A DNA stretch of 64,000 nt from Candidatus Latescibacterota bacterium (GTDB taxonomy: Bacteria; Latescibacterota; UBA2968): NCBI GenBank assembly GCA_965204745.1, contig OZ242010.1:3659767-3723766 (forward strand). Reading direction: 5' to 3'. A model generated the notes under the pieces. It was not told the DNA's origin. It searched no databases and saw only the letters and a list, made by a program, of their open reading frames with translations. Position numbers and translations under genes: made by a program. This document shows positions 667 through 61,471 of this stretch, in pieces (position 1 is the first letter of the stretch; every line of letters begins with the position of its first letter).

Positions 667-803
667 AGATGATCTCCTCGTTCGCAATAATTTGGGAATG
701 GTGCGAGGACAGGCACGGGCCTGCTACTTTAATTCAGTGGGCCTGTCCCTGCGAGCGACTTGATTTGCCAACCGCTTGGGAGGAGGGAGGGAGATAGGGC
801 GGA

Positions 804-825
804 CTGACAACTGACAACTGACAAC
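804..825. repeat. (CTGACAA)x3 heptamer array abutting the IS fragment
   Basis: ctgacaactgacaactgacaac lies directly before ggcgttgttgcataaat, the IS terminal inverted repeat. Confidence 0.8.
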
Positions 826-1250
826 GGCGTTGTTGCATAAATAGCTATTGCCTGCAAGTTGGGATTGCAAAAAGACAAGCTCCTTCGTAGATTGGGCATA
901 TGGAGCACCGAAACCACTCACCCTTTCTCACCAGGAACCTGTCATGCCCAAGATAACCGCTTCCAAGACCGCCGTCAAGGCCCCTCGTCGCCCTCGTCGC
1001 CCGCGCTGTGCGCCTGTCTATCGGGTTCGGAACTGGCCGGCCTACGAGGCCGGTCTCAAGCAGCGGGGCAGTCTGACGTTTTGGATTACACCGCAAGCCC
1101 TTCGGGGGTGGTACCATCAAGGGCCAACGCAACGGGGGAGGCAAAACACCTTTTCAGATTTGGCTATTCAAACGGCACTGATGTTGCGCTTGGTCTCTGC
1201 CTTGCCCCTGCGTCAAACCGAGGGGTTTCTCACGTCCATCCTGGCGCGTG
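826..1250 (+). mobile_element. Truncated IS5-family copy (IR plus the first ~100 codons of the transposase)
   Basis: 826-960 is near-identical to the reverse complement of 31440-31581, the transposase-proximal end of the full IS. MPKITASK...LPLRQTEGFL matches the N-terminus of the 334-aa transposase at 30458..31462. The similarity ends around 1250. Confidence 0.65.
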
Positions 1251-1450
1251 GAGATGACGCGGGAGAGCGTCACACTGCCCACGCACATCCCGGCCATGAA
1301 CGTGCCGAGCAAGATGCCGAGGGAAATGGCCGAAGACCCGACGACGAGTTGCAACATCTGAAACCAGACGATTTCGTAGATGAGCGCGGCACACCCACTG
1401 CCCGCGAACAGGGCGACGAGCAAGGGGAGAAATTTGGGCTTGGCGCGCAT
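1228..1450 (-). pseudogene. 5' remnant of a spermidine-synthase-like polytopic membrane protein gene, interrupted by the IS fragment
   Basis: MRAKPKFLPLLVALFAGSGCAALIYEIVWFQMLQLVVGSSAISLGILLGTFMAGMCVGS resembles the conserved N-terminus of the membrane-bound spermidine synthase-like family. The reading frame then runs into IS-derived sequence. Confidence 0.4.
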
Positions 1451-2374: not shown

Positions 2375-2696
2375 TATCCCCCGGCCCCTTTCCTACGAGG
2401 AAAGGGGAGTAAAGCTCCATTGATGGCTTCTCGCTCTGGTTGCTCTGATGGCGGTGCGCGAGGGCATAAAGCGATTAAAAACCCCTCACACCATCCCCTC
2501 GTAAAACCCATCCGCGTTCCCCCCTTCCTCGCAGGAAGGGGGGTTAGGGGGGTAGGTCCCGATAGGGCATAAAGCGATTAAAAATCCCTCACACCATCCC
2601 CTCGCAAAACCCATCCGCGTTCCCCCCTTCCTCAAAGGCACAGGCGTAGCCTACAACGAAGCGAAGCGAGTAACGGGGGTTAGGGGGCTGGGCGGT
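2375..2696. repeat. Intergenic composite of GC-rich hairpin modules, including a ~104-bp tandem duplication at 2464-2634
   Basis: Palindromes cccctttcctacgaggaaagggg and ccccccttcctcgcaggaagggggg. The gcataaagcgattaaaaa...gcgttcccccc unit occurs twice. The module gcacaggcgtagcctacaacgaagcgaagcgagtaacgggggttaggggg recurs at 8810, 14640, 21060 and 29840 (reverse). Confidence 0.55.
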
Positions 2697-2742
2697 CTGA
2701 CAACTGACAACTGACAACCGACAACCGACAACCGACAACTGA
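2697..2742. repeat. Heptamer array (CTGACAA/CCGACAA) x6-7
   Basis: ctgacaactgacaactgacaaccgacaaccgacaaccgacaactga. Confidence 0.85.
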
Positions 2743-2754
2743 TAGGAGTTCACC

Positions 2755-3531
2755 ATGTCCATTACCGATGCACAAAAACGCCAATTTGTCGAGGAAGGGT
2801 ATCTCAAAATCTCGGGGGCTGTGCCCAAGCACATGATCGAAACGGCGCGGCGCGCGGTCAATTATTCCATTGGCAATGTGGGCCTTGGCGGTGAAGACCT
2901 CGCAAATCACCGCTCGGGATTCTTTTGCGCCGAACTGTTGGACGCGCCGTTCATCATCGACATGTACAACGAGACGCCGGTGATGGAGATCGCCGAAGCC
3001 CTGATGGGCAAGGGCAATGTCCTGCCGGTTGCACGCGCCAAAACCTATCCGCGCTTCCCCATGCCACTCGGCGCAGAACCCTCGCCGCCGCGGGGCCATA
3101 TTGACGGCATTGGCAACGGCACCAATGGCACGGCCAAGGGCGATTACAAGCGCGGATTCACGGCGTTTGCCGTCGTCTATCTCGTGGATGTGCCCGAACC
3201 GTTCAGCGGCAATTTCACGGTTTGGCCCAAGTCCCATCGCTTTTTTGCGGACTATTTCAAAACGCACGGTCACGAAGTGCTCGCCCAAGGCATGCCTCGC
3301 CCCGATCTGCCCGAAGACCCGGTGATGATCACCGGCAACGCGGGCGATTTCATTCTCGCGCATCATCAGGTCGTTCACGGCTCGTGTCCCAACGCCTCGC
3401 CCAACGTGCGCTTGGCGACCATCTCTCGCCTCAAGCACAAAGATGCCGATCAAATCGGCAAGGATGCGTACACAGAGATATGGCGCGAATGGCCCGGTCT
3501 TCACGACGTGCTCAATGGAAAATCCGAGTGA
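2755..3531 (+). CDS. PhyH family Fe(II)/2OG oxygenase, paralogue 2
   Basis: aggag RBS. PRGHIDG and HHQVVHGSCPN motifs. Collinear similarity to paralogue 1. Confidence 0.8.
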   Translation: MSITDAQKRQFVEEGYLKISGAVPKHMIETARRAVNYSIGNVGLGGEDLANHRSGFFCAELLDAPFIIDMYNETPVMEIAEALMGKGNVLPVARAKTYPRFPMPLGAEPSPPRGHIDGIGNGTNGTAKGDYKRGFTAFAVVYLVDVPEPFSGNFTVWPKSHRFFADYFKTHGHEVLAQGMPRPDLPEDPVMITGNAGDFILAHHQVVHGSCPNASPNVRLATISRLKHKDADQIGKDAYTEIWREWPGLHDVLNGKSE

Positions 3532-8511: not shown

Positions 8512-8894
8512 GCGGTCCGTGCAACGTTGCCCTTCCGCGCCGCCGTGTCTGAATCGCGGATTAAACGGATTAGGGGATTGCGCGGATTACCACCCACCGC
8601 CCTACCGCCATAGACCTATCCCCCCGGCCCCCGTTATTCGCTTCGCTCATTGTAGGCTACGCCTGTGCCTACAAGGAAAGGGGGAGCGCATGGCTTTTTG
8701 AAGGTTTATATCCCTGTCTGTTTTGATGGCTTTGCGCGAATGGATCACGCCATAGAAACCCAAACCCCTCTCGCGTAAATCTCTCGCAAGACCCATCGCC
8801 ATTCCCCCTTGTATCTTCCTCGCAGGCACAGGCGTAGCCTACAACGAAGCGTAGCGAGTAACGGGGATTAGGGGGGTAAGTCCCGATTTGTGCA

Positions 8895-10990: not shown

Positions 10991-11349
10991 TTTATCGGTC
11001 ACTCCGATCAACGGCCGAGCACGGGGGCATGGAAAAAAAAGGTGAGAGGTGAGAGGCAAGACGGGAGAAGACCTACACTCACTGCTCGCCTTTGGACTGG
11101 CTGTCGCTAGTTGTACCCCGCTCGTGGCTAAACTTGCCTCTTGCCTCTTGCCTCTTGCCTTTTTAGGCGAGCACGGGGCGTCGCCCCTACACATATCGCT
11201 CACCTTTGAACTGGCTATCGCCAGTTGTACCCCGCTCGTGCCTTTTGCGCCTTTTGTGGCTAATCGCCTTTTGTGGCTCACTTCAGGTTGGGTGGGCGGG
11301 TGTGGACTGACCACTGACTACTGACCACTGACTACTGCCTCTTCCCTTT

Positions 11350-14464
<3,115 letters not shown>

Positions 14465-14488
14465 GTCAGTAGTCAGTAGTCAGTAGTC

Positions 14489-14719
14489 AATGCGAATTAA
14501 GAGTAGAAAACGAGTAAGAAGCAAGCCGCGGCCAATCGCCCAAAGACCTCAACGAGTCATCCATTATAGAATCGCCCCTTAGAACTTGTCTGAAAACAAA
14601 CGATGCCCTCTCCTCCGGCTCCTCCCCGCAACGCAGAGACGTTATTCCCCCCTTCCTCGCAGGCACAGGCGTAGCCTACAACGAAGCGTAGCGAGTAACG
14701 GGGGTTAGGGGGGTAGGTC
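14489..14719. mobile_element. Truncated copy of MITE family B (TIR aatgcgaattaagag), next to a (CAGTAGT)x3 array
   Basis: Collinear with the reverse complement of 29781-30054 and with 18942-19269. Only the left TIR is present; the hairpin module A forms the right end. Confidence 0.5.
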
Positions 14720-18730: not shown

Positions 18731-18846
18731 ATGAAAGGCGTGAGACGTGAGACGTGAGACGTGAGATGAAAGGCGTGAGACGTGAGATGAAAGGCGTGAG
18801 ACGTGAGACGTGAGACGTGAAATGAAAGGCGTGAGACGTGAGATGA
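18731..18846. repeat. Tandem array of GTGAGAC heptamers interleaved with the 14-mer gtgagatgaaaggc
   Basis: gtgagacgtgagacgtgagacgtgagatgaaaggcgtgagacgtgagatgaaaggc... The minus-strand ORFs here (SRLTPFISRLT...) are translation artefacts of the repeat. Confidence 0.85.
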
Positions 18847-18941
18847 CCATCATCATTCCGGCGTAGGCAGGCACGCGCAAGCACAACGCAAGTAATCCAG
18901 TGACTTTCCGGCGGTTGGGCGGGGACTGACAACTGACAATG

Positions 18942-19269
18942 CGAATAAAGCGTTGCATCCATTTATTGGGACCTACCCCCCTGGCCCCCCTTCCTCACAG
19001 AAAGGGGGGAATGGCGAGAGGTTGTGCGAGGGGTTTGGGTTTCTAGGGCGTGATCTATTCGCTCAAAGCCATCAGAACAGCTAGGGAGACAAACCTTCAA
19101 AAAGCCATGCGCTCCCCCTTTCCTTGTAGGAAAGGGGGCCGGGGGGATAGGTCCTACGAGAAAGGGGAAGAACATCTCTCGTTGCGGAGATGCGCCGGAT
19201 GACTCGTCCATGTCTTTGGGCGATTGGTCTCGGCTTGCTTCCTACTCGCTTTCTACTCTTTATTCGCAT
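18942..19269. mobile_element. MITE family B copy (TIRs aatgcgaataaag / ctttattcgcatt), embedded between CTGACAA arrays
   Basis: Both TIRs are present. The interior holds hairpin modules (ccccccttcctcacagaaagggggg; cccctttccttgtaggaaaggggg) shared with 29781-30054. Confidence 0.55.
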
Positions 19270-19312
19270 TGACAACTGACCACTGACAACTACCTTCCCA
19301 AAGAAACTCCCC

Positions 19313-20780: not shown

Positions 20781-21242
20781 CTAGGTCGTGTTGACATTTT
20801 ATTTTTTTAGGTCACGCACAGATTAGCAAATGTGTTGCTTGCTCATTTAATGCGTTTCCTTTGATGGCTTCTATCTCTGGTTGCTCTGATGGCGGTGCGC
20901 GTGGGGACTATCCCCCGGCCCCTTTCCTACGAGGAAAGGGGAGTAAAGTGCCTTTGATGGCTTCTCGCTCTGGGTTGCTCTGATGGCGGTGCGCGAGGGC
21001 ATAAAGCGATTAAATATCCCTCATCAATCCCCTCGCAAAACCGCTCACAGTTCCCCCTTCCTCACAGGCACAGGCGTAGCCTACAACGAAGCGAAGCGAG
21101 TAACGGGGGTTAGGGGGGTAGGTCCCGATAAGGAGCGACTGTTCCAGTTTCTCAAATCGAGAGCATATCCTGAGATAGGGCTTGATTTTCTCGATAAACC
21201 GCTCAAGCCGGTGCATGGCTCGTAAATGTCAACATAACCTAG
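20781..21242. mobile_element. MITE family A copy (~460 bp) with 19-bp terminal inverted repeats ctaggtYRtgttgacattt
   Basis: Left end ctaggtcgtgttgacattt (20781-20799); right end the reverse complement of ctaggttatgttgacattt (21224-21242). The interior contains hairpin modules A/B. The 80-aa ORF 20983..21225 is probably not coding. Confidence 0.55.
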
Positions 21243-21336
21243 TCAGCCCCCACACGACAACCCCGAACCCGATGCAATTTGATGAGCGGCTATGGCGATT
21301 GTACTCCGCTCCGTTGATTCGTAAATAGGAGAAACT

Positions 21337-22204: not shown

Positions 22205-22530
22205 TATTTTTTTCGCACCTGTCAGGGCAACGATGGATCGGTCAACACACCCGTCAGGGCAACGATGGATCGGTCAACGCACCCGGCGGCGTGGGGATAG
22301 GTTGGAAACGCACAAGGCGGCGCAGAGGTAGGTTGGGCACGCACATGGCGGCGCGGTGGCGAGGTTGGGCACGTACAAGGCGGCGTGGTGGCAGGACAGG
22401 GAACGCACAAGGCGGCGTGGTGGCAGGACAGGGAACGCACAAGGCGGCGTGGCGGCGAGGCGGGGAACGCACAAGGCGGCGAGGCGGCAGGACAGGGAAC
22501 GCACAAGGCGGCGAGGCGGCGAGGCGGGGC
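22205..22530. repeat. ~32-bp minisatellite, ~10 degenerate tandem copies (gcacaaggcggcgtggtggcaggacagggaac)
   Basis: Units share the gcacaaggcggcg core and diverge gradually. The region is stop-free in all six frames. Repeats are contiguous with no spacers, so this is not CRISPR. Confidence 0.7.
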
Positions 22531-25746: not shown

Positions 25747-25793
25747 CGCGCGACTAGACGCCCCCCGCTGACCGCTTGGAGGCTTGGGATTAA

Positions 25794-25892
25794 CTGACAA
25801 CTGACAACTGACAACTGACAACTGACAACTGACAACTGACAACTGACAACTGACAACTGACAACTGACAACTGACAACTGACAACTGACAAC
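25794..25892. repeat. (CTGACAA)x14 perfect heptamer tandem array
   Basis: 99 bp of uninterrupted ctgacaa at the right edge of the methyltransferase islet, upstream of lgt. Confidence 0.95.
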
Positions 25893-25980
25893 TTGAGAGG
25901 AACAGCGCGGTGGCCTTCTCCCGTCTCCCCTCTTGCCTCTTGCCTCTCCCGTCTTCCCTCTACCCTCTTCCCTTCACCTC

Positions 25981-26733
25981 ATGTCTCCAATCCTCTTTGA
26001 ATACGGCCCCCTTCGCATCGGCGTTTACGGCACAATGCTCGCCGTGGGGTTCCTTTTTGCATCGTGGGTGCTCAAGCGCGAATTTCGGCGGCGTGCGCTC
26101 GATCCCGCGCTGTCGGACCGCATTGCGTTTGCCGCGGTGATCGGCGGCCCTGTGGGCAGCAAAATTTTTCACGTCCTTGAATATCCCCACGCCTTTGTCG
26201 CCGATCCCTTTGGCACGGTTTTTTCCACGCTGGGTTGGGCGTGGTATGGCGGGTTTTTGGGTGGCGCGGCTCTCGTGCTCCTCGCGCTTCGCCGGCACAA
26301 CGCCTTGAATTGGTCCGCTTTGGACGCGTTCGCGCCGGCCCTTGTCGTGGGCTACTTTTTTGGCCGCGGGGGGTGCGAACTCTCCGGCGATGGATGCTAT
26401 GGCATGCCCACTGATCTGCCGTGGGGCAAAGCCTATCCCAAGGGCCTCGTGCCCACAGTTGAAGTCGTACATCCCACGCCGATTTACGAAATGATCCAGA
26501 TGGTCTGCATTTTCGGCATTTTGTGGGCCTTGCGCGGTCGTCTCAAACCCGGTGTGACTTTTGGCCTATATCTCGTTTTGATGGCCCTCGCCCGGTTCGC
26601 TGTCGAATTTGTCCGCCTCACGCCCGAAGTTTTTTTGTTTCTCACTGTGCATCAATGGGTCAGCATCGGCCTCGTGCTCGCCGGGCTTTACATCGTCGCG
26701 TCGTGTCGAAACAAAAATTCTATCCGAGGATAA
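25981..26733 (+). CDS. lgt: Prolipoprotein diacylglyceryl transferase
   Basis: GVYGTMLAVGFL... polytopic membrane protein with Lgt-signature blocks. Start ATG at 25981. Confidence 0.8.
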   Translation: MSPILFEYGPLRIGVYGTMLAVGFLFASWVLKREFRRRALDPALSDRIAFAAVIGGPVGSKIFHVLEYPHAFVADPFGTVFSTLGWAWYGGFLGGAALVLLALRRHNALNWSALDAFAPALVVGYFFGRGGCELSGDGCYGMPTDLPWGKAYPKGLVPTVEVVHPTPIYEMIQMVCIFGILWALRGRLKPGVTFGLYLVLMALARFAVEFVRLTPEVFLFLTVHQWVSIGLVLAGLYIVASCRNKNSIRG

Positions 26734-26864
26734 AACGAGCCGTCTCCCATGCCCGTTCATCTGCAACAAAGGACGAGTCGTTGGGGTGGTGAAGCTATAG
26801 CGATTGACAAAGGGCGAGATATTTTTTTCATTTTCACCTTGACCCCCACACCTCGAACGCAATT

Positions 26865-28361
26865 ATGGACATTCGATTTTACAATACCCTGACCAATCGC
26901 ACGGAAATTTTTGAACCGCTCGATCCCCCGCATGTGGCGATGTATTCCTGCGGTCCAACCGTGTACGATTTTGCCCACATCGGCAACTTCAAATCCTTTT
27001 TGTTCTCGGACGTGCTCCGCCGCTTCTTGGAACTGGCCGGGTACCGCGTCGCCCATGTTATGAACATCACGGACGTGGGGCACATGACCGACGATGATGT
27101 GGCCGATGCCACGGGCGAAGACAAAATCGCGGTGGCTGCGCGCAAACTCAAAGAAGCAAAAAAATCCGGCGCCCTGCCCGATGGGATTTCCAACCCGGAC
27201 GACCCGTATCAGATCGCGCAATACTTCACGGACGCATTCGTTCAAGACGCCCGCGCACTCGGCATCAAAGTCGCGCACGATTATCCGCGCAACATGCCTC
27301 GGCCCACCGAACACATCGACGCCATTCAAGCGATGATCCAAACGCTCTTGGCCAAGGGCCACGCGTACATCGCCGATGATGGCGTGGTTTATTTTAGCGT
27401 GCGATCCTTCCCCGAATACGGCAGGCTCTCGGGCAATGACGTGGCCCAACTCGTCGCCGGATCGGGCGGGCGCGTCTTGGAAGAACACCAAGTTGCCAAG
27501 CGCGACTCCGCGGATTTCTTCCTGTGGAAACCCGATCCATCCCACATCATGAAATGGCCTTCACCTTGGGGCGAGGGCTATCCGGGCTGGCACATCGAAT
27601 GCTCGGCGATGGCGATGAAATTGTTGCGCCGCGAGGTGATCGACATCCACACCGGAGGCGAGGACAATATTTTTCCGCACCACGAATGCGAAATTGCCCA
27701 ATCGCGCTGTGCCACGGGCCAATCGCATTTTGCCAAGTACTGGATTCACCCGCGCTATTTGATGGTCGAAGGCAAAAAAATGTCCAAGAGCAAGGGCAAT
27801 TTTTTCACGGTGCGAGACGTGCTCGAGGGCGAAGTCACCGGGCGGCGGGTTCACCCGGCTGTTCTGCGCTACGAACTCATCAAGACGCACTACCGCACGC
27901 AGACCAATTTCACGCAAAAAGGCATTCGAGACTCGGCCAATGCGGTGCGCCGGTTTTGCGAATTTGGTCAGAATCTCGCCACAGCAACACAGGGCAACGC
28001 GGTCGAGGTGGATAACGCGCATCCGGTCATCGCCGATTTTCTCAACGCACTCGCCAACGACCTCAACATCAGCGCGGCCCTCGCGGTCGTCCACACCTGG
28101 ATGGGGCAAAAAGTAGCGGACGCGCCCGAAGCCTTGGGCGTGTTCGACAAAATCAACGGGGTGCTCGGCATTGCCGATCTGTCCGATTCATCACCATCGT
28201 CAGCCACGGACACCAGCGCGGCCCTGTGCAAACAAATCGACGCGGCCCGCGCAGCCAAGAATTACGACGTCGCAGACCGGTTGCGCCAAGAACTCATCGA
28301 CGCGGGCTACGAAGTGCGCTCCACGCCCGAGGGCACAGTCGCGGTGAAGAAGTTGGCGTAG
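26865..28361 (+). CDS. cysS: Cysteine--tRNA ligase
   Basis: HIGN and KMSKS class I motifs. Zn-binding Cys (MYSCGPTVY). Confidence 0.9.
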
Positions 28362-28532
28362 CCCTATCCACATTAGTTGCAGAGACAACCCCGTGCCTAT
28401 CCTCTACCTAGCGGCGGCCTGACCACTGATTCCTTGAGCGGGATAGCGCGGCTCCCTTCTCGCCTCTCCCGTCTGCCCTCTTACCGAAGGGCGGCTGGGC
28501 GGGCGGCCTGACCACTTCGGACGAGAAACGAC

Positions 28533-29708
28533 ATGTCCATCCAACTGCCCATCTATCTCGACAACAACGCCACTACGCCCGTGGATGAATGGGTGCTCGC
28601 GGCGATGTTGCCCTATTTCAAGGATCGGTTTGGCAATGCGGCCAGCCGCACGCACGCCTTTGGGTGGGAGGCCGAGGACGCAGTCGATAGGGCGCGAGAA
28701 CAAATTGCCAGCCTCATCAACGCACAGCCCAAAGACATCGTCTTTACCAGCGGGGCCACGGAATCCGACAACCTCGCCATTAAAGGCGTGGTGGCCGCGG
28801 CGCGGTCCGCGCACCTCATCACGCAGGCAACCGAACACCACGCCGTGCTCGATTCGTGCCGCGCAGTGGAACGCGCAGGCGTCTCGGTCACGGTCTTGCC
28901 CGTGGACTCGCATGGGATTGTGGATCCGCAGGATGTTGCAAACGCCATCACAAAGCACACGGTTCTGGTCTCCATCATGGCGGGGAACAACGAAATTGGC
29001 ACCTGTCAGGCGATAGGAGAAATCGGCGCGCTGTGTCGAGAAAAAGACATTTACTTTCACACGGATGCCGCGCAGGCCATTGGCAAAATTCCGCTCGACG
29101 TGGAAGCCATGCACATCGACCTGCTCTCCATTTCCGCGCACAAGTGCTATGGCCCCAAAGGCATGGGCGCGCTCTACGTGCGGAGTCGCCCGCGTGTGCG
29201 CTTGGTGGGGCAGGTGGATGGCGGCGGCCATGAAAAAGGCATGCGCTCGGGCACGCTCAACGTGCCGGGCATCGTGGGGCTTGGAAAAGCCTGCGCGCTC
29301 GCACAACAGCACCTCGCGGCGGACGCCGAACACTGCTGGAAATTGTGCCATCGCTTGCGCGATCAGCTCTTCAACGCGCTGGATCAACGCCAACTCAACG
29401 GCCACCCCAACCAGCGTTTGCCGGGCAATCTCAACATCAGCTTTGCCGGCGCGGATGGCGAAAGCCTGCTGATGGGCTTGCGCGATGTGGCCCTCTCGTC
29501 TGGATCGGCGTGTACATCCGCGTCTCTGGAGCCGTCTTATGTGCTCAAAGCTATCGGCGTTGGCGACGAGATGGCGCGAAACAGCATCCGCTTTGGCATT
29601 GGCCGGTTCAATACCGAAGCCGAGATCGACTACGTCGCGGACCGCGTGATCCGAGAAGTCAACCGCCTCCGCGAAATCTCGCCGAATTACAAAAGCCACA
29701 AAAAATAA
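28533..29708 (+). CDS. Cysteine desulfurase (IscS/NifS family)
   Basis: SGATESDN and SAHK (PLP lysine) motifs. Active-site SSGSACTS. Confidence 0.85.
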   Translation: MSIQLPIYLDNNATTPVDEWVLAAMLPYFKDRFGNAASRTHAFGWEAEDAVDRAREQIASLINAQPKDIVFTSGATESDNLAIKGVVAAARSAHLITQATEHHAVLDSCRAVERAGVSVTVLPVDSHGIVDPQDVANAITKHTVLVSIMAGNNEIGTCQAIGEIGALCREKDIYFHTDAAQAIGKIPLDVEAMHIDLLSISAHKCYGPKGMGALYVRSRPRVRLVGQVDGGGHEKGMRSGTLNVPGIVGLGKACALAQQHLAADAEHCWKLCHRLRDQLFNALDQRQLNGHPNQRLPGNLNISFAGADGESLLMGLRDVALSSGSACTSASLEPSYVLKAIGVGDEMARNSIRFGIGRFNTEAEIDYVADRVIREVNRLREISPNYKSHKK

Positions 29709-29710
29709 AA

Positions 29711-29735
29711 AGCCATCAGCTCGTTTTGCTGATGG
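29711..29735. terminator. 9-bp stem hairpin (gccatcagc/gctgatggc) in an A/T context; candidate bidirectional terminator
   Basis: Directly after the cysteine desulfurase stop. The U-run is better on the minus-strand reading. Confidence 0.45.
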
Positions 29736-29780
29736 CTTGAAGCCGGAGATCGGGCGGCCTGACCACTGCATTTATCTTCG

Positions 29781-30054
29781 AATGCGAATTAAGAGTTGAA
29801 TCCATTGCGTACTTGTCTTTTTTTGGACCTACCCCCCTAACCCCCGTTACTCGCTACGCTTCGTTGTAGGCTACGCCTGTGCCTGCGAGGAAGGGGGGAA
29901 TAACATCTCTCCGTTGCGGGGATGAACCGGAGGAGGGAACATCGTTTTTTTTAGACAAGTTCTAAGGGGCGATCCTATAATGGATGAGTCGTTCATGTCT
30001 TTGGACGATTGGTTGCGGCTTGCTTCTTACTCGCTTTCTACTCTTAATTCGCAT
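29781..30054. mobile_element. MITE family B copy with intact TIRs aatgcgaattaagag / ctcttaattcgcatt
   Basis: Reverse-complement collinear with 14489-14719 and 18942-19269. Contains hairpin module A. Confidence 0.55.
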
Positions 30055-30134
30055 TGACCACTGACCGCTTGGGGTGCTGGGTAGCCCTCTTACGTCTTCC
30101 CTCTCCCGTCTCACTTGCGGAAGGGCGGTGCGGG

Positions 30135-30173
30135 GACTGACTACTGACTACTGACTACTGACTACTGACTACT
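30135..30173. repeat. (CTGACTA)x5 heptamer array
   Basis: gggactgactactgactactgactactgactactgactacttgg. Confidence 0.9.
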
Positions 30174-30403
30174 TGGGGTGCTAGGCGGTCCTCTTGTATC
30201 TTTGGGCGAGCACGGGGGCATCGCCCCTACATATATATCGCTCACCTTTGAACTGGCTATCGCCAGTTGTACACCGCTCGTGCCTTCTGTGCCTTTTGTG
30301 GCTAAAATCCCGTCTTCCCTCTCCCGTCTCACTTGCGGAAGGGCGGCGCGGGGACTGACAACTGACAACTGACAACTGACAACTGACAACTGACAACTGA
30401 CAA

Positions 30404-31581
30404 CGGCGTTGTTGCATAAATGTTGTCGTGGCTAAGTTCGTCCCTTTCCCGCGAAATTTAAGCCCTTCTTTCTATGGGATAGGACACGGGTTTCGCGATC
30501 CTCATCATGCGATTGAGCACCGCACATCCCAACCGTGCTTCCGTTTCTTGGTTCTTCTTTTTTCGTGCGCGCAACTGCCGCCCAATGAGTTGTTTGTAGC
30601 GGCCTATGTGGGTTTCAACGACCGAGCGACGATGATAGCCACTGGTGCGTTTCCACTGTCGGCGGCCTTGACGCCGGATGGCTCGGATGATTTCATCGCG
30701 GGCGAGGGGGGGTGCCTTCCTGTTTCCGTGTTGTTCAATTTTGGCATCATGGCGCGGGGGAATCAGAGGTCGGATGGGGGCTCCTTGTTTGGGGGCGGCG
30801 CATGTGTTGAAGACCTTGCGTTTGTCATAGCCGCCATCGGCGCCCAGCGTATGGACAGGGGCCGGGACTTGATCGAGCAAGGGGTTGACCTGCGAAGCGT
30901 CATCAACGCTTGCCGAGGTCAGGGTCTGTGCGACAATCTCCCCGGTGGCCTCATCGACGCCGATGTGCAATTTGCGCCAAGTCCGGCGCTTGCAAAAGCC
31001 GTGTTGACGCACCTTCCATTCGCCTTCGCCATACACTTTCAGGCCGGTAGAATCCACCACCAAGTGGATCGGCTCGTGACGGGATTGGACAGGTAAATCC
31101 ACGTTCAAATCGCCCTGTCGCCGGCAGAGGGTCGTGTGATCGGGCACACGCAAATCCACCCCCATCAATGCCAGGATGGACTTGAGAAACCCCTCGGTTT
31201 GACGCAGGGGCAAGGCATAGACCAAGCGCACCATCAATGCCGTTTGAATAGCCAAATCTGAAAAGGTGTTTTGCCGCCCCCGTTGCGTTGGCCCTTGATG
31301 GTACCAGTTCCGAAGGGCTTGCGGCGTGATCCAAAACGTCAGACTGCCCCGCTGCTTGAGACCGGCCTCGTAGGCCGCCCAGTTCCTAACCCGATAGACA
31401 GGCGCACAGCGCGGGCGACGCGGGGACTTGACGGCGGGTTTGGAAGCGGTTATCTTGGGCATGACAGGTTCCTGGTGAGAAAGGGTGAGTTGTTTTGGTG
31501 ATCTATATGCCCAATCTACGAAGGAGCCTGTCTTTTTGCAATCCCAACTTGCAGGAAATTGCTATTTATGCAACAACGCCA
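30404..31581 (-). mobile_element. Complete IS5-family insertion sequence (~1.18 kb), inserted in a (CTGACAA)n array
   Basis: Perfect 17-bp terminal IRs ggcgttgttgcataaat (30404-30420) and atttatgcaacaacgcc (31565-31581). (CTGACAA)x7 on both flanks; removing the IS plus one AC restores the heptamer phase, consistent with a 2-bp duplication. Confidence 0.8.
30458..31462 (-). CDS. IS5-family DDE transposase
   Basis: 334 aa, MPKITASKPAVKSPRRPRCAPVYRVRNWAAYEAGLKQRG... typical IS5-family N-terminus. Confidence 0.85.
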   Translation of the reverse strand: MPKITASKPAVKSPRRPRCAPVYRVRNWAAYEAGLKQRGSLTFWITPQALRNWYHQGPTQRGRQNTFSDLAIQTALMVRLVYALPLRQTEGFLKSILALMGVDLRVPDHTTLCRRQGDLNVDLPVQSRHEPIHLVVDSTGLKVYGEGEWKVRQHGFCKRRTWRKLHIGVDEATGEIVAQTLTSASVDDASQVNPLLDQVPAPVHTLGADGGYDKRKVFNTCAAPKQGAPIRPLIPPRHDAKIEQHGNRKAPPLARDEIIRAIRRQGRRQWKRTSGYHRRSVVETHIGRYKQLIGRQLRARKKKNQETEARLGCAVLNRMMRIAKPVSYPIERRA

Positions 31582-31650
31582 CTGACAACTGACAACTGAC
31601 AACTGACAACTGACAACTGACAACTGACAACTGACCACTGGAGCCTCTCT

Positions 31651-32643
31651 ATGCTACGCACCTGCGTCATCGGCCTCGGCCCAATCGGCAACCGGCACGC
31701 CGACATCTACGTCGAAAATGAACGCGCCGAACTCATCGGCGTGTGCGACATTGACGAAACCCGCGCCAATGCCGCCGCCGCCCGCTTGGGCATAACCGCA
31801 TTTTACAATGTTCAGAAAATGCTCGATGAATGCCGGCCCGATGTGGTCAGCGTGGCCACGGGCGGGTATGAATACAGCAGCGACCACTACGCGCCCACCA
31901 TGCAAGCCCTCGAGGCGGGTTGCCACGTCTTAGGCGAAAAGCCCATCTCCAACAGCATTGCCCACGGCGGAGAAATGGTCGCCAAAGCCAAAGAAATGGG
32001 CGTGTGTTATGGCATTGACCTCAACCACCGCTTTACCCCTGCGGCGCGCCTCGCCAAGAAGTGGGTGGACGAAGGCCGCTTGGGCCATCTGCTCTTTGTC
32101 AACATGGCGATGTGGATCATGAACCCGGCAGAGAGTTCGCCGTATTACCACCTCAAAGCCCTGCATCCGCACACGATTGACGTGATGCGCTATTTTTGCG
32201 GGGATGTGGAAGCGGTTCACTGTTTTGCCACCAAAGCGCCGGGGCGCGCGATCTGGTCGACCGCGCAGTTCAACATGCGGTTCACAAACGGCGTGGTCGG
32301 CTCGCTCACGGGCAGTTACGACATCGAGCGCGGCCATCCGATGGAACGTTGCGAAGTCGCAGGCACAGGCGGGCGGTTTGTCCTCGAAGACATGTGGCAC
32401 GAACTCACCTTGTACCCGGCGGGCGAGTTGGAAAAAACCGTGTACACGGACCCGGCATTTGGCGGGTTTGGCGATTTTATCGACACGTTCCGAGACCGCA
32501 TCGACACCTTTCTCCGCGAGGTCGGCGCCGGGGTCGCGCCCGAGGATATCGACGGCTCTGCCGAAGATGCCTTGGCCGCGCAAAAAGTCATTGCCGCAGC
32601 CATAGAATCGCTGGATGCGGAAACCGTTGTTTACGTGAAATAG
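31651..32643 (+). CDS. Gfo/Idh/MocA family oxidoreductase
   Basis: N-terminal Rossmann fold VIGLGPIGNRHA. EKP catalytic motif (HVLGEKP). Confidence 0.8.
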   Translation: MLRTCVIGLGPIGNRHADIYVENERAELIGVCDIDETRANAAAARLGITAFYNVQKMLDECRPDVVSVATGGYEYSSDHYAPTMQALEAGCHVLGEKPISNSIAHGGEMVAKAKEMGVCYGIDLNHRFTPAARLAKKWVDEGRLGHLLFVNMAMWIMNPAESSPYYHLKALHPHTIDVMRYFCGDVEAVHCFATKAPGRAIWSTAQFNMRFTNGVVGSLTGSYDIERGHPMERCEVAGTGGRFVLEDMWHELTLYPAGELEKTVYTDPAFGGFGDFIDTFRDRIDTFLREVGAGVAPEDIDGSAEDALAAQKVIAAAIESLDAETVVYVK

Positions 32644-32651
32644 GAGTCATC

Positions 32652-33701
32652 ATGGACAAAGTTCACATCGGCGTCATCAGCCACGCGCACGGACACATCA
32701 ACACCTATTGCGGTCAGATGCAGCAATTTGACGACGTGGCACTCGTCGCCACCTGGGACGACAATGAAGACCGCGGGCGCGCCAATGCCGACAAATTCGG
32801 TTTGGAATTTCGCACGTCAGCAGACGCGGTGCTCAACGATCCCGACATCGACACGGTCATGATCGGCATCGAGACCAACCGGCATGCGGACTACGCGCAG
32901 ATGGCCGCACAGGCGGGCAAAAACATCTTGCTTCAAAAACCCATGGCCACCACCCTCGAAGATTGCGACCGAATCATCGACGCGGTGAACGACTCGGGCG
33001 TCAAGTTCAGCATGGCCTTTCAGATGCGCCAGGATCCGGTCAATCGCAAAATCAAAGCCCTGGTGGAGCGCGGCACAGTGGGCGAGATCGCGGTTGTTCG
33101 CCGGCGACATTGCATCCCGGTGTTGCTCAATCCCCGCTTTGCCACGAGCGCGTCCAAATGGCACCTCGACCCGGTCGCCAACATCGGCATGTATTTCGAC
33201 GACGCCATCCACGCCGCGGACTGGTTCTACTGGATCTTTGGCCGCCCGGTGTCCGTGATGGCCGAGATCGACAGCGTTGTGACGAATTTCGCGCCCGACG
33301 ACAATGGCGTCGCGATTTTCCGGTTTGAAACCGGGATGATGGGCATTTTGTTCAACGGCTCGACCACGGTCGCAGGCGTCAACACCACGGAAATCTACGG
33401 GGACGAGGGCAGCATCATCCAAGACTACGGGGACGCGCCTTCCACGTCTGCGCCGCGTGCCCAAGACGCTGTGCCGCTCAAGTACATCCGGCGCGGCGAC
33501 GAGTGCTGGACCGAGTTCAAAATGGACATTCCCAGCGGGCAGGGCGAGCGCATCGCGGCCATTCCCCGGCCGTTCATCGACTACATCCGCGGCCTGAGCG
33601 ACGAGCGCGTCTCTGCGGAAGATGGGCGCGTTTCCGTAGAAATGATCCTCGCCGCCTATCAATCGGCCAAAGACGGCCGCCGAATTTATTTTTCGGATTG
33701 A
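32652..33701 (+). CDS. Gfo/Idh/MocA family oxidoreductase
   Basis: TAGGAG RBS then ATG 32652. IGVISHAHGH...LLQKP. The track extension from 32196 overlaps the upstream gene. Confidence 0.8.
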   Translation: MDKVHIGVISHAHGHINTYCGQMQQFDDVALVATWDDNEDRGRANADKFGLEFRTSADAVLNDPDIDTVMIGIETNRHADYAQMAAQAGKNILLQKPMATTLEDCDRIIDAVNDSGVKFSMAFQMRQDPVNRKIKALVERGTVGEIAVVRRRHCIPVLLNPRFATSASKWHLDPVANIGMYFDDAIHAADWFYWIFGRPVSVMAEIDSVVTNFAPDDNGVAIFRFETGMMGILFNGSTTVAGVNTTEIYGDEGSIIQDYGDAPSTSAPRAQDAVPLKYIRRGDECWTEFKMDIPSGQGERIAAIPRPFIDYIRGLSDERVSAEDGRVSVEMILAAYQSAKDGRRIYFSD

Positions 33702-33788
33702 GAGGAGAGAAACGCGGAGAAATCGTCCGCATTGAAGCACGCCCGTAGTTTTGTTTTTCAACGCCAATCCTCATTCAAAGGACAACCC

Positions 33789-34433
33789 ATGCATCAAACC
33801 TATCCGGATCTCGACGCGTACAGGCGGGAGGTTTTCGCCCGTGAAGATGAGTTGCTCAAGGGCCTTATGCCCGCAGCGGTCGAACAGGGCATTCCGCGCA
33901 TCTCCGTCAGCCCCGAAGCCGGGCAAACCCTGTATTTGCTCGCCAAAGCCATCGGCGCGAAAAAAATCCTCGAATTTGGCGCGCTCGCCGGCTACTCGGG
34001 CATCTGGCTCGCCCGCGCCCTGCCCGCAGACGGTCGATTCATCACCTTGGAAATCGAACCCAAACACGCCGAAGTCACGCGGCGCAATTACGAAAACGCC
34101 GGGCTGTCAGCCCGAACAGAAGTGCGGTTGGGAGACGGGGCAACCCTGATGAAAGACGCGGTGCAGGACGGCCCGTTTGACCTCGTCTTCATCGACGCAG
34201 ACAAGGAAAACTATCCCACGTACCTCGACTTTGCCCTTGAAAACACGCGCCCGGGCGGCCTCATCATCGCCGACAATGCCAACGGGCACGGGCACGCGCA
34301 CCGCGCACTTCCCAAAGGCGACGGTCGCCGCGGCATCCAGGACTACAACCACCGAGTCGCCAACCATCCCAAACTCGTCTCCAACATCATCCCGGTCGGG
34401 GGCTGGCTCGCGGTCTCGCTCGTTTTGGAATGA
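33789..34433 (+). CDS. Class I SAM-dependent O-methyltransferase (family 3, caffeoyl-CoA OMT-like)
   Basis: ILEFGALAGYSGIWLA SAM motif and DLVFIDADKENY. Confidence 0.7.
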   Translation: MHQTYPDLDAYRREVFAREDELLKGLMPAAVEQGIPRISVSPEAGQTLYLLAKAIGAKKILEFGALAGYSGIWLARALPADGRFITLEIEPKHAEVTRRNYENAGLSARTEVRLGDGATLMKDAVQDGPFDLVFIDADKENYPTYLDFALENTRPGGLIIADNANGHGHAHRALPKGDGRRGIQDYNHRVANHPKLVSNIIPVGGWLAVSLVLE

Positions 34434-34480
34434 ATGGTAGGGACATGGCCCCGTGCTCACCCGAAGAAAGGAGGTCGCGC

Positions 34481-34951
34481 ATGGCGTTTGAAGCGCGGAT
34501 CGAAGGCATCTTTATCGACAGCCAATTTGAAGAGCAAGTCGTCATGCTCAAAGAAAAGGATGGGCACCGCCGCGTGCCCATCTGGATTCAAATGGGCGAA
34601 ATGCTCGCGCTCGCCCTTCAGTTGGCCGGCACTGAACCCCCGCGGCCGTTTGCACACGACTTGATCCGCACGGTCCTCCGCAACCTGCAAGCGCGTGTTC
34701 GCCATGTGGTCATCGCGGATATCGTCGATCACATCTACCACGCGCGCGTGTCTCTCACAGCGCCCGAAACCCCTTTGGACGTTGACGCCCGGCCGAGCGA
34801 CGCGATCTTGCTGGCACTCAAATTCGACGCGCCCATTTACGTCGCCAATCGGGTCGCAGACAAGAACGCCGCACGCGACTACTCGCCCGAACTCCTGCAA
34901 CAACGGCTACAACAACTGCGCCCGGAAGATTTTATCAACTTCGTCCGATGA
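34481..34951 (+). CDS. Bifunctional nuclease (BFN/DUF151) family protein
   Basis: GAAAGGAGG RBS. Typical BFN blocks (KDGHRRVPIWI, HVVIADIVDHIYHARV). Confidence 0.6.
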   Translation: MAFEARIEGIFIDSQFEEQVVMLKEKDGHRRVPIWIQMGEMLALALQLAGTEPPRPFAHDLIRTVLRNLQARVRHVVIADIVDHIYHARVSLTAPETPLDVDARPSDAILLALKFDAPIYVANRVADKNAARDYSPELLQQRLQQLRPEDFINFVR

Positions 34952-36159
34952 AAAAATTACCCATACTCCTGCTTTGCCTCTGCATTCAGGCGTCCGCAGA
35001 GCGAGCCGGTCGAGAATTGCCCGCACGCCATAAAATCGGCATCATCGCCCCGTTGGGCACGCCACACGGCGAAGCCCTACGCAACGGCATTTTGATCGCC
35101 CGCGACCACACCCCCCTCGCAGAACCGGTCGGCTTGGTATTTGAAGACTCTGAAGGCGATCCCATTCGCGCAGTGCGCGCCGCGCAACGCCTCGTTGAAG
35201 ACCGCGAGGTCATCGCGATCATCGGCGCGCTCACCAGCGCGGAAACCACGCCTATCGCGGCCCTGCTCGGCGTGCAAGAAATGCCCTTGGTGGCCCCAAC
35301 CGCGTCAGACGACGGCATTGCCTCGCTCAGCCCGTACATTTTTCAAGTCAACGCCACCCCCGGCGCGCAGGGCCGCCGCATCGCAGAACACGCTGTACGC
35401 GAACAGGGCTTGCGAACACTGGCAACCCTCGCGTCTCGAGATGGGTATGGCAGGCGCATCGCCCGCGAATTTACGACCAAAGCCGAGGATCTCGGCGCCG
35501 AGGTCCTCATCCAAGAATGGTACGAGCCGGGCACGACGGACTATCGCCGCCAATTCGAGCGCATTCGCAGCATGGGCTTGGCACTGCGTCCGCCCGCTGA
35601 CCTCGCTTCGGAAATTGACGCTTTGATCCTCGGCGATTTGTACGTCGCACCGCCCCTGGTCGAGGTCGATCCGGATACGGCCCAAGCCGACGTGGTCGAG
35701 ACCTTAGACGGCATTCTCATCGCGGGCGATGATGCGGACATCTTGCTCATCGCCCCGCAATTTCACTCCGCACTGGTCGCTTCCCAAGTGCTCGGCAGCG
35801 ATGGTTGGAACCACGCCGAAGTCGCGCGAGATGGCGGCACTTACGTGGAGGGCGCGGTTTTTGTCGGCAAATACTACGAACAAAGTCCCCTCGAATCCGT
35901 GCAATTTTTCGTCAACGCGTACCGCTCGCGCTTTGGCACGGACCAAAATATCGTCTCGGCCCTCGGGCACGACGCCATGCTGTCAATCCTGCACGGCATC
36001 AACGCAGGCGGCACCACCCGCGCCCTCCTGCGCGACCGCCTCGAAACCCTGACCGACCTCCCCGGCGCAACCGGCAAAATCTCCTTTGCCCCAGGCAATC
36101 GAGAAAATGGCTGGCTACACATGCTCACCATCCGGAAGGGGAAAATAGAACTGTATTGA
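34948..36159 (+). CDS. ABC transporter substrate-binding protein (type I periplasmic-binding fold, Liv-like)
   Basis: Signal peptide MKKLPILLLCLCIQASA. Periplasmic-binding-protein architecture. Confidence 0.6.
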   Translation: MKKLPILLLCLCIQASAERAGRELPARHKIGIIAPLGTPHGEALRNGILIARDHTPLAEPVGLVFEDSEGDPIRAVRAAQRLVEDREVIAIIGALTSAETTPIAALLGVQEMPLVAPTASDDGIASLSPYIFQVNATPGAQGRRIAEHAVREQGLRTLATLASRDGYGRRIAREFTTKAEDLGAEVLIQEWYEPGTTDYRRQFERIRSMGLALRPPADLASEIDALILGDLYVAPPLVEVDPDTAQADVVETLDGILIAGDDADILLIAPQFHSALVASQVLGSDGWNHAEVARDGGTYVEGAVFVGKYYEQSPLESVQFFVNAYRSRFGTDQNIVSALGHDAMLSILHGINAGGTTRALLRDRLETLTDLPGATGKISFAPGNRENGWLHMLTIRKGKIELY

Positions 36160-36227
36160 GGCGAAAGAGGCGAGAATAGAAGGGCGCGGCCCCGTGTGGT
36201 CATCACCCATAACATCGAGGAGAGGCA

Positions 36228-36578
36228 ATGATCAATTTTTACACATGGAGCAGATGAAGCACCTGTCGCAAGGTGAAAGCGTGGCTTTCGCGAGAAGGTG
36301 TGGAGGTGGTGGAGCGGGACTTTTTTCGGGATGGATTTACAGAGTCAGAGCTTCGAGCTTTGCTCGGGGACATGCCGCCGGGCGACGTCTTCTCGTGGCG
36401 CAGTCCGTCTGCGCGTGCGCTGAACCTCGACCGCGATGCGGTGTCCGCAGATGAACTGATTCGCCTGATGGTGGAACAACCTCGCCTGATCCGCCGGCCC
36501 TTGATCCGCGCAGGCGGGCGCCTGATGGTGGGCACGGACAAGGCGGCGATGGCAGAGGTCTTTCCCGGTTTCGCGTGA
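36228..36578 (+). CDS. ArsC/Spx/YffB-family thioredoxin-fold protein with an in-frame UGA (candidate selenocysteine) at the catalytic Cys position
   Basis: AGGAGAGG RBS then ATG 36228. MINFYTWSR-[TGA]-STCRKVKAWLSREGVEVVERDFF... aligns with Spx [20 protein letters not shown], giving a U-x-x-C motif. Same frame as the track ORF 36273..36578. A hairpin UCGC-AAGGU-GAAAGC-GUG-GCUUUC-GCGA starts 9 nt after the UGA. Confidence 0.6.
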
Positions 36579-36605
36579 TGCGCTTGCAAAAAAAGGATTT
36601 TGCCG

Positions 36606-38303
36606 ATGAATTTCACCGCCAACAACAACACGTTTCGCCAGTTGATGGGCAATGGCCTGAGTTATCGCGTGCCGCAATTTCAACGCGATTATTCCTGGGG
36701 CCCGGACGAATGGGACGATCTGTGGCAAGACATGGTCGGGCTGTTTGGCGAAGACCCGGAACCCGCGCATTACATGGGCTACTTGGTGTTGCAATCGTCC
36801 GACAACCGGGCGTTCGACATCATCGACGGACAGCAACGCATGACAACGCTGAGCTTGTTGATGCTGGCGGCAGTGGCGCATCTGAAAGACTTGGCAGTGC
36901 CGAATGACCCCAATGATCCGCAACACCGACGCGCAGAACAACTGCGAAACAATTACATCGGGTACCTCGATCCGGTGACGCTGGTGCCGCGCTCCAAGTT
37001 GACGCTGAACCGGCACAACGACCGCTTTTACCAGAATTACCTCGTGCCCCTTGAGCACCTGCCGCAAAGGGGGCTGAATGCTTCGGAACGCCTATTGCGA
37101 AGGGCGTTTCAGTGGTTTGGGGAACGCATCGTGGCATACGCGGGAAATGATGGCGAAGCGGTGGCGCGCTTTGTCGATAGCGCCGTTGATAAGTTGTTTT
37201 TTACGGTGATCACGGTGACGGACGAGTTGAATGCGTTCAAGGTCTTCGAGACCCTGAATGCGCGGGGCGTGCGCCTGTCTGCCACCGATTTGTTGAAAAA
37301 CTACCTGTTTTCCATGGTCTCGAGGGACGGCGTACACGAATCGGAAATCGAGGCATTAGAAGAACGCTGGGAGAGCATCGTCGGGCTGTTGGGCAGTGAG
37401 CGTTTTCCCGAGTTTTTGCGCGTCTATTGGAACAGCCACAATAGGTTGGTCCGCAAGGCCGATTTGTTCAAAACCATCCGCAATGCGATCCGCGACAAGT
37501 CCCAAGCCTTTGCCTTGATCCGCGCGATGGACCGGCATGCACGGGTGTACGCGGCATTGCGAAACCCAGAAGACGATTCGTGGACAGCCGCAGAGCGCGA
37601 CAGCCTATCCCAGTTGCTTATGTTCGACGTGCGCCAGCCCTTGGCCTTATTGCTGGCGGCCTTTGATCGATTCGCCGAAGACGACAGGGCCGGCCTCGGG
37701 CGTTTTCTTCGGGCTATTGCCGTGGTGTCTTTCCGCTACAACGCGATCTGCGGTTACCCGAGCAACGAGCAAGAGACGATGTACAACCGCATCGCACGCA
37801 ACATATCAACGGGCCAGATCGCCAATGCGACCGCCGCCATTGCGGAACTGAGGCCGGTTTATCCCGATGACGCAAAATTTAAGGCCGCGTTCGCCGACAA
37901 GGTGTTGCGAACCACCAGCAGTCGCGACAAAAAGGTGGCGCGCTTCATCCTGTTCCGACTCGAGGAGCAGTTGTCCGGCAATCGCTTTGATATTGAGAGC
38001 GCGAAATACAACATCGAGCATGTGTTGCCAGAAAGCCCCGGCAACGGCTGGGACCAATTCGACGATCAGCAACGCGATGCGTTCACCCATCGTTTGGGCA
38101 ACCTGACGCTTTTGGCAACAGCGGATAATCGCACCTTGGGAAATACCTCCTTTTTAGAAAAGCGTCCCATTTACCAAAAAAGCCAATTTGCCATCACGCG
38201 CAAATTGGCTGAAAATTTCGATGCCTGGACCGCAGAAAAAATTCGTTCACACCAGACCTGGATGGGCAAACAAGCCACGGCCATCTGGCGCGTCAATTTC
38301 TGA
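36606..38303 (+). CDS. GmrSD-family type IV (modification-dependent) restriction endonuclease, DUF262 + DUF1524
   Basis: N-terminal ParB/Srx-like DUF262 with IDGQQR. C-terminal His-Me finger (DUF1524: EHVLPES...W...HRLGNLTLL...NR.LGN). Confidence 0.75.
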   Translation: MNFTANNNTFRQLMGNGLSYRVPQFQRDYSWGPDEWDDLWQDMVGLFGEDPEPAHYMGYLVLQSSDNRAFDIIDGQQRMTTLSLLMLAAVAHLKDLAVPNDPNDPQHRRAEQLRNNYIGYLDPVTLVPRSKLTLNRHNDRFYQNYLVPLEHLPQRGLNASERLLRRAFQWFGERIVAYAGNDGEAVARFVDSAVDKLFFTVITVTDELNAFKVFETLNARGVRLSATDLLKNYLFSMVSRDGVHESEIEALEERWESIVGLLGSERFPEFLRVYWNSHNRLVRKADLFKTIRNAIRDKSQAFALIRAMDRHARVYAALRNPEDDSWTAAERDSLSQLLMFDVRQPLALLLAAFDRFAEDDRAGLGRFLRAIAVVSFRYNAICGYPSNEQETMYNRIARNISTGQIANATAAIAELRPVYPDDAKFKAAFADKVLRTTSSRDKKVARFILFRLEEQLSGNRFDIESAKYNIEHVLPESPGNGWDQFDDQQRDAFTHRLGNLTLLATADNRTLGNTSFLEKRPIYQKSQFAITRKLAENFDAWTAEKIRSHQTWMGKQATAIWRVNF

Positions 38304-38396
38304 TAGGGAAGTGATGTCTAGCCAAACCGAGTTGTCAACGTTTGAGCCGCTGGTATTCCCGACGCGCTTCCATCAGGGAAGGCGGCACAGATCCTC

Positions 38397-38420
38397 AAAT
38401 TACCGAGCACTCGGTAATTT
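38397..38420. promoter_or_regulatory. Perfect 10-bp-arm palindrome aattaccgag-cact-ctcggtaatt upstream of the 38450 gene
   Basis: Sits between the gmrSD stop and the next start. Operator-like symmetry, or a hairpin. Confidence 0.3.
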
Positions 38421-38449
38421 GAATCACTCACTTTTCATGGAGGTGTATC

Positions 38450-39094: not shown

Positions 39095-39200
39095 AACCAA
39101 TCCCTGGTCTCTAGGAGGTGATCGAATCCGCGATAGCGCAGGAATCGACGCACGAAACAGTCCGTCTGACTATCCTCGCAGAGAAGGACGATACTCACGC

Positions 39201-56504: not shown

Positions 56505-56517
56505 CAAGGAGATCGAC

Positions 56518-61410: not shown

Positions 61411-61471
61411 TACCTCAGCGAATCAACGAATCAACGAAGTGCGTCGGGTTTTGGGGCTGTTGGGCGGGGAC

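Follow-up and report, generated by a model that had tools for sequence, protein, structure and literature searches.

Two copies of one insertion sequence, a complete and a truncated one, are found beside tandem arrays of the heptamer CTGACAA in the window (the whole 64-kb stretch of DNA analysed here). The element is of the IS903 group (IS5 family), duplicates 9 bp of its target, and enters the arrays preferentially and always in the same register; the corresponding site of a conspecific contig is empty. These features are very probably accounted for by an IS903-group element with a 9-bp stagger and a palindromic flank rule that favours the arrays, the truncated copy being a relic left by a later rearrangement, most likely a deletion. 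The coordinates are collected in Table 1.

Table 1. Features of the window that bear on the two insertion-sequence copies
Feature	Position	Strand	Remarks
Target-array remnant, (CTGACAA) x3.3	803..825	+	Tandem Repeats Finder; last 9 bases ACTGACAAC, the presumed target 9-mer of the relic
Truncated IS copy (relic), 421 bp	826..1246	+	transposase-proximal 17-bp inverted repeat (826-842), leader, transposase codons 1-101 (ATG at 944)
Junction GCG, possibly shared by IS and host gene	1244..1246		presumed microhomology of up to 3 bp; intact allele not found
5' remnant of membrane/spermidine-synthase-like gene	1244..1450	-	69 codons, two predicted membrane helices
Split array, left half, (CTGACAA) x7.3	30354..30404	+	Tandem Repeats Finder
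9-bp target duplication of full IS, one copy	30396..30404		ACTGACAAC
Complete IS903-group element, 1176 bp	30405..31580	-	perfect 17-bp inverted repeats at 30405-30421 and 31564-31580
Transposase gene, 334 aa	30458..31462	-	Pfam DDE_Tnp_1_5 and DDE_Tnp_1; NCBIfam transpos_IS5_2
Split array, right half, 8.6 units	31581..31640	+	Tandem Repeats Finder
9-bp target duplication of full IS, second copy	31581..31589		ACTGACAAC
Gfo/Idh/MocA oxidoreductase gene	31651..32643	+	array in 5' leader; IS now parts gene from upstream region
Heptamer arrays, listed	803-825, 2697-2742, 11306-11337, 14463-14489, 18925-18939, 19270-19291, 25792-25893, 30136-30173, 41586-41733, 42618-42745, 61470-61484, 61761-61779

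The initial annotation had assigned the element to the IS5 family; this holds, and the placement can be narrowed to the IS903 group. The single ORF of the full copy (minus strand, 31462..30458) encodes a transposase that matches Pfam PF13737 and PF01609, and NCBIfam NF033579 ('IS5 family transposase') with 327 bits against a cut-off of 140. This protein is 40% identical to the IS903B transposase (BLASTP E 1e-75, residues 23-330 against 21-321). At the positions of its D137, D209 and E283, the annotated IS903B protein has D136, D208 and E274, which would be the catalytic DDE residues (D121, D193 and E259 in 307-aa numbering). The 17-bp inverted repeat, GGCGTTGTTGCATAAAT, shares 15 of its 17 bases with that of IS903B, GGCTTTGTTGAATAAAT. 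It is present in the window in three places, namely 826, 30405 and, reversed, 31564-31580, against 0.2 occurrences in shuffled sequence. The features that mark the IS903 group were found together: full-length transposase homology, the DDE triad, a 9-bp duplication, GGC-starting repeats of ~18 bp, and a length of ~1-1.2 kb with one ORF. The likeness to IS903, IS903B and IS102 extends to the same domain pair in a single DDE transposase and, apparently, to a preference for palindromic 5-bp flanks.

IS903 itself is 1057 bp long and generates a 9-bp duplication (PMC12670165; PMC2577343, Table 1). The present element differs from it in its length of 1176 bp and in its N-terminus, which is longer, rich in Arg and Pro, and includes a variable 9-bp repeat. 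The copy number of this in-frame repeat, CCCTCGTCG (Pro-Arg-Arg; window 982-1002 and 31396-31410), varies: the full window copy is one unit short (334 aa) in comparison with its relatives (337 aa), and the relic contains 2.3 units. Unlike IS903 with its enterobacterial host, the element resides in a Latescibacterota-like host, and its best sites come from a tandem heptamer array. The host placement is approximate: the cysteinyl-tRNA synthetase encoded in the window has 72-73% identity to proteins named Candidatus Latescibacteria or Latescibacterota, and 99% identity to a protein of the ENA study that also yielded the close IS copies. Overall, it is a further IS903-group member, ordinary of its type, whose array preference is largely explicable.

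The full copy had been placed at 30404-31581. Its true limits lie one base inside at either end, and its description as a complete IS with perfect 17-bp inverted repeats is confirmed. CTGACAA arrays lie on both sides of it as reported, the left one of 7.3 and the right one of 8.6 units, where seven each had been counted; from the end of the right half-array to the next ATG there are 10 bases (13 with the partial unit CTG). A conspecific contig (L216) is 98-99% identical to, and collinear with, window positions 25876-39685. Gene order at the Gfo/Idh/MocA locus is the same in this contig, and the IS is missing from the orthologous site, where an unbroken 6-unit array lies between the same unique flanks. 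Thus, the full copy is a recent insertion into a pre-existing, length-variable array. Upstream of the Gfo/Idh/MocA gene, the IS-bearing allele (30354-31640) has 14 array units once the IS and 9 bp are removed, against 6 in the empty allele (L216 5603-5650), and the order of CTGACCA and CTGACAA units also differs between the two, so that the arrays are hypervariable among close strains. The idea that the IS brings its arrays along was rejected, because an array is present at the empty site and none surrounds six of the copies.

Inside the window, the length of the target duplication is ambiguous. The last nine bases to the left of the full IS and the first nine to its right are both ACTGACAAC, and in a perfect 7-bp array lengths of 2, 9, 16 and further bp all fit. 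Removal of the IS plus 2 bp restores the repeat phase, and removal of the IS plus 9 bp does so equally: since 9 = 7 + 2, a 9-bp duplication mimics a 2-bp one in such an array. Close copies were obtained by a protein search leading to a transposase cluster at 97% identity, the loci of whose members supplied 15 further copies (L201-L215), 95-99% identical in DNA and located in ENA metagenome assemblies including a 5.28-Mb contig. Their sites are not orthologous to those of the window, with only the repeats matching. Five of these copies lie outside arrays (L202, L203, L207, L208 and L209) and have perfect 9-bp duplications in non-repeat DNA (GTTTTTGTG, GAAAAAAAA, ACCAACAAC, GATGTAAGG and AATTTAACT). 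A further pair, L214 and L215 (ENA ERZ25070167), has exchanged flanks, the left 9-mer of each being the right 9-mer of the other; this swap is the signature of homologous recombination between two IS copies (inversion or other rearrangement) in a related genome. When the flanks are re-paired, one non-array site (CACAAAAAC) and one array site are obtained, with 9-bp duplications. The six non-array copies are 97-99% identical to the full copy. The array of L201 has non-identical units, and the duplication there, GTCGTCAGT, excludes a length of 16 bp.

More distant relatives agree. A scan of representative genomes yielded only relatives of at most 74% identity, which were used for the duplication length: a 70%-identical relative from a Latescibacterota genome has perfect 9-bp duplications in 12 of its 14 copies, in ordinary DNA, and the relatives L014, L018 and L023 likewise have 9-bp duplications. 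The loci of these relatives contain no heptamer arrays and are hence uninformative on array targeting. When metagenomes were scanned for the 17-bp inverted repeat, 120 stretches were retrieved, with no close copy among them. Exact-sequence look-ups with the transposase, the Gfo/Idh/MocA protein and the PhyH protein of the window gave no match. Thus, the target duplication is 9 bp. The initial annotation had noted that removal of the IS and one AC restores the phase, which is correct, and had taken this to imply a 2-bp duplication, which the non-array copies and the relatives contradict. A 2-bp (AC) duplication with specific targeting of CTGACAA arrays would explain both the restored phase and the location of the two window copies within arrays, but it is very improbable: clean 9-bp duplications are found in six near-identical non-array copies, in the relatives and in IS903 itself (PMC2577343, PMC12670165), the sum 9 = 7 + 2 accounts for the phase, and the 2-bp model survives only if the window copies differ in behaviour from copies that are 98.8% identical.

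The preference for CTGACAA arrays is real and strong, and it is not exclusive. Independent insertion sites were located in such arrays in 11 of 17 cases, the 17 comprising the two window copies and 15 sites in related assemblies, none of these 15 in the source genome. By comparison, the share of CTGACNN arrays is 0.75% in the window, ~4.7% in its ~10 kb of intergenic DNA and 0.2% in the flanks of the related copies. All 11 array insertions are at the same 9-mer, ACTGACAAC, in orientations of 7 versus 4, and arrays of CTGACTA and CTGACCA, which contribute nearly half of the units, received none of the 17 insertions. The non-random association with arrays that had been proposed is therefore borne out by 11 of 17 sites, whereas array targeting as a rule is not: tabulation of the flanks placed the other six in non-heptamer contexts, the very kind of copy that had been named beforehand as telling against it. 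All 17 sites appear to be intergenic, which would suit random insertion with no target preference and survival only in neutral arrays. Such a view is almost certainly wrong, because arrays forming ~4.7% of intergenic DNA hold 11 of 17 sites (binomial p ~2e-11), and because selection is unable to fix one of seven registers in 11 of 11 cases or to exclude the CTGACTA and CTGACCA arrays.

In the literature searched, no report of an IS preferring heptamer arrays was found; the searches did return the IS903 target motif and the TAACTGA repeats. IS1397 and ISKpn1 insert into REP/BIME, which are repeated extragenic sequences. The present element resembles them in that its insertions cluster at a fixed position in a short, abundant intergenic repeat. 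It differs in that IS1397 and ISKpn1 belong to other IS families and use palindromic, hairpin-forming units, whereas here the target is a direct tandem array; moreover, the preference can be derived from the ordinary target rule of the family, and six of 17 sites lie elsewhere.

The fixed register can be compared with that target rule. From 12 array-free sites of the 70%-identical relative, a symmetrised consensus YNWYA-N9-TRWNR was derived; it thus reflects the sites of the relative, and its informative positions were picked after the array sequence had been seen. This consensus agrees with the published IS903 target motif WTTYA-N9-TRAAW (PMC2577343, Table 1). Among the seven registers of (CTGACAA)n, the observed one is the only one to score 8/8, the rest scoring at most 5, and it is also the best by the IS903 motif (7/10 versus at most 4 for the others). 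The register is unique because 5 + 9 = 14, twice the repeat length, and because TGACA is close to self-complementary; for the same reasons every repeat unit offers a good site in either orientation. Nine held-out sites had a mean score of 5.7 versus a background of 3.3, and the non-array sites of the close copies score 4-7 of 8. With the IS removed, the window contains 49 perfect-score (8/8) sites, 25 of them in arrays; 23-24 lie outside arrays, ~14 of these in ORFs, so that arrays hold 25 of ~34 when the ORF sites are left out. The flank rule and the loss of genic insertions together predict roughly the observed array share. The consensus is nevertheless incomplete: the 9-mer GTTTTTGTG was used in two independent non-array insertions at a site scoring 4/8, and all six non-array insertions are at sites below the perfect score.

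These comparisons suggest that the palindromic rule causes both the register and the preference. Both window copies would represent one IS903-group insertion sequence that moves by DDE transposition with a 9-bp staggered cut, and the transposase, as in IS903, would favour 5-bp flanks that form a rough palindrome around the 9 bp. A (CTGACAA)n array would offer exactly one fitting register, TGACA[ACTGACAAC]TGACA. The arrays being apparently intergenic, insertions there would be tolerated, and with good sites in each unit the arrays would become the main landing place.

A dedicated targeting of arrays that goes beyond the palindromic rule is a minor but serious possibility: the CAACTGA-type repeat or its structure may be recognised by the transposase or by an array-bound host protein, as with REP-like evolved landing pads. 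The array insertions, 11 of 11, are at perfect-score sites and the other six are not, although 23-24 such sites are available outside arrays in the window; another intergenic repeat contains a second recurrent target; and a MITE-like element also adjoins arrays. However, ORFs contain most of the non-array perfect-score sites, and insertions into them would be purged; the flank-sequence rule predicts both the register and the confinement to CTGACAA rather than CTGACTA or CTGACCA; and the relatives that share the flank rule live in genomes without such arrays. The stronger proposal, that the IS and lineage-specific CAACTGA-type arrays (leader repeats akin to the TAACTGA repeats of giant sulfur bacteria and cyanobacteria) are co-adapted, with the arrays as dedicated landing pads drawing most insertions of the IS and perhaps of the MITE-like element, is distinctly unlikely. 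The ordinary IS903-type flank rule is thus preferred.

The arrays themselves are abundant. The 64-kb window contains 16 heptamer arrays of the form CTGAC[A/T/C][A/C/G], apparently all intergenic. A G-rich motif (ttGGGCGGgGA) precedes most of them; after several comes cttgggg, and these form a composite intergenic repeat together with GTCTCAC or TCTCCCC arrays. The Latescibacterota MAG loci with related IS copies, ~180 kb in all, contain no CTGAC-type array. TAACTGA direct repeats have been described from intergenic regions of Beggiatoaceae, Cyanobacteria and Bacteroidetes, in a study in which CAACTGA direct repeats were rare in the genome analysed and transposases or insertion sequences go unmentioned (MacGregor 2015, PMC4679880). 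The present arrays, with units CAACTGA, CTACTGA and CCACTGA, are alike in being direct arrays of a heptamer, apparently intergenic. One of them ends 10 bases before an ATG; the TAACTGA repeats often lie just upstream of a start codon (PMC4679880). They differ in that none of the units is TAACTGA, all being one or two bases off, in occurring in another phylum, and in the GGGCGG-rich motif before most arrays.

A MITE-like element of ~275-330 bp with terminal inverted repeats (A)ATGCGAATTAAGAG was observed at 29781-30055 and 18940-19269, with one end at 14490. The copy at 29781 is missing from the conspecific contig. Each copy adjoins a TTGACNA(CTGACNA)n array, and the arrays may therefore be part of this element or have been seeded by it.

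The truncated copy has a different history. It had been described as extending over 826-1250 with the same left junction as the full copy; the start and the junction are correct, and IS homology stops at 1246. On the plus strand both copies share the junction CTGACAAC/GGCG (ctgacaac/ggcgttg), but the relic lies in the opposite orientation, so that this 'identical left junction' matches non-equivalent IS ends, transposase-proximal in the relic and transposase-distal in the full copy. The relic locus lies between a SelA-like gene and a PhyH gene. Nor is the relic a copy of the full element. The relic comprises the transposase-proximal part, is 92.6% identical to the full copy over 420 bp, and has an extra 9-bp repeat in the coding region; its transposase fragment covers positions 1-63 of 112 of Pfam DDE_Tnp_1_5. 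It is 4-7% diverged from every other copy, and is closer to copies from related assemblies (96.2% identity to L202, 95.5% to the second copy in L206) than to the full copy. It thus looks like a remnant of a diverged sister subfamily, not a fragment of the full copy. In L206, a full copy is followed downstream, after 65 bp, by a second copy (2633-3229), which is of this sister subfamily and internally deleted, with 597 bp and both inverted repeats retained. One long CTGACAA array houses the two; on the far side of the deleted copy the sequence is non-array and shows no duplication. The transposase cluster also includes several truncated members of 207 aa.

The identity given to the gene joined to the relic is supported: the minus-strand ORF from 1450 encodes the N-terminus of a spermidine-synthase-like membrane protein. 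The remnant weakly matches positions 22-73 of PRK03612 (NCBIfam, E 1e-3; the membrane part of polyamine aminopropyltransferase) and has hundreds of homologues, several of them named spermidine synthase by their source. As proposed initially, it was compared with an orthologue: in L213, a protein of ~700 aa, split by frameshifts in a low-coverage assembly, is 79% identical to the remnant at its start and has a C-terminal piece with Spermine_synth (PF01564). The truncation of both the IS and the gene is borne out, and 101 transposase codons remain where about 100 had been estimated. The two are, however, not fused out of frame; their frames converge on opposite strands, the gene remnant being joined tail to tail with the relic, and the ORF from 1450 continues into antisense IS sequence up to a stop at 1154. 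The end of the remnant had been placed at 1273; alignment of the junction puts it at 1244-1247, with 68-69 codons surviving. At the relic junction the IS variants of L202 and L206 read CTGGCG/TTG, and the L213 orthologue has CGC at the matching codon 69. The catalytic part of the gene is missing from the window, where only the first 69 codons are present; a search of the 64 kb for the 3' portion of the gene, which the initial annotation had advised to look for elsewhere, and for the missing part of the IS found neither.

A disruption of the membrane gene by insertion of the IS is not upheld: the IS entered an array, and a later rearrangement fused the IS interior to the gene interior. A single deletion between the two most likely formed the relic. 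An older insertion of the sister subfamily would have entered another array, on the 3' side of the region of the membrane gene, which is oriented convergently to the relic. One deletion, with microhomology of up to 3 bp, would then have begun at IS position 422 and reached into the gene as far as codon 69. Lost with it would be the distal 755 bp of the IS, what remained of the array, the DNA in between and the gene beyond its first 69 codons. Adjacent deletions of the IS903 type stop at an IS terminus. Since the relic breakpoint is not at a terminus, illegitimate recombination is more likely than such a deletion. An inversion, a translocation or an assembly chimera as the source of the junction at 1244-1246 is unlikely. 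The missing IS and gene parts are absent from the 64-kb window, which suits a deletion and a distant breakpoint partner alike, and the swapping of flanks between IS copies is known from a related genome (L214/L215). However, the breakpoint is within the IS, neither at its end nor between two IS copies, a divergence of 4-7% from all other copies is as expected for an old dead fragment, and an assembler error at a repeat would normally run to the end of the repeat. A deletion is thus retained as the preferred origin.

Further repeats were observed. A dispersed family with a ~73-bp core is found in the window at 2415-2687, 8613-8887, 14648-14719, 20862-21243 and 29825-29897, and also in L201, L209 and L212 with 85-98% identity. 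Other tandem arrays are located at 22216-22529 (a 32-bp unit x8, AACGCACAAGGCGGCG...), at 56385-56508 (perfect (GCAAGAG) x17.7) and at 18731-18846 ((CGTGAGA) x15 in a 56-bp super-repeat). A TnpB/Cas12f-like gene (PF07282) lies at L201 5355-6341, ~1.3 kb beyond one of the related IS copies and past a Gfo/Idh/MocA gene; it is probably unrelated to the IS.

What do these two copies mean for the element and its host? A tempting misreading is corrected, namely that a 9-bp duplication passes for a 2-bp one inside a 7-bp array, and a geometric reason emerges for a tandem repeat serving as a transposon hot spot: twice the repeat period equals flank plus stagger. An active IS903-group element is found in an uncultured Latescibacterota-like lineage, with an empty-site allele, internally deleted derivatives and flank exchange, and it is useful as a marker of strain-level variation in that lineage. 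Attention is also drawn to the abundant heptamer arrays themselves. If the IS and the arrays were in fact co-adapted, genes would be shielded from insertion, and IS-driven switching of the genes that lie behind arrays would be possible.
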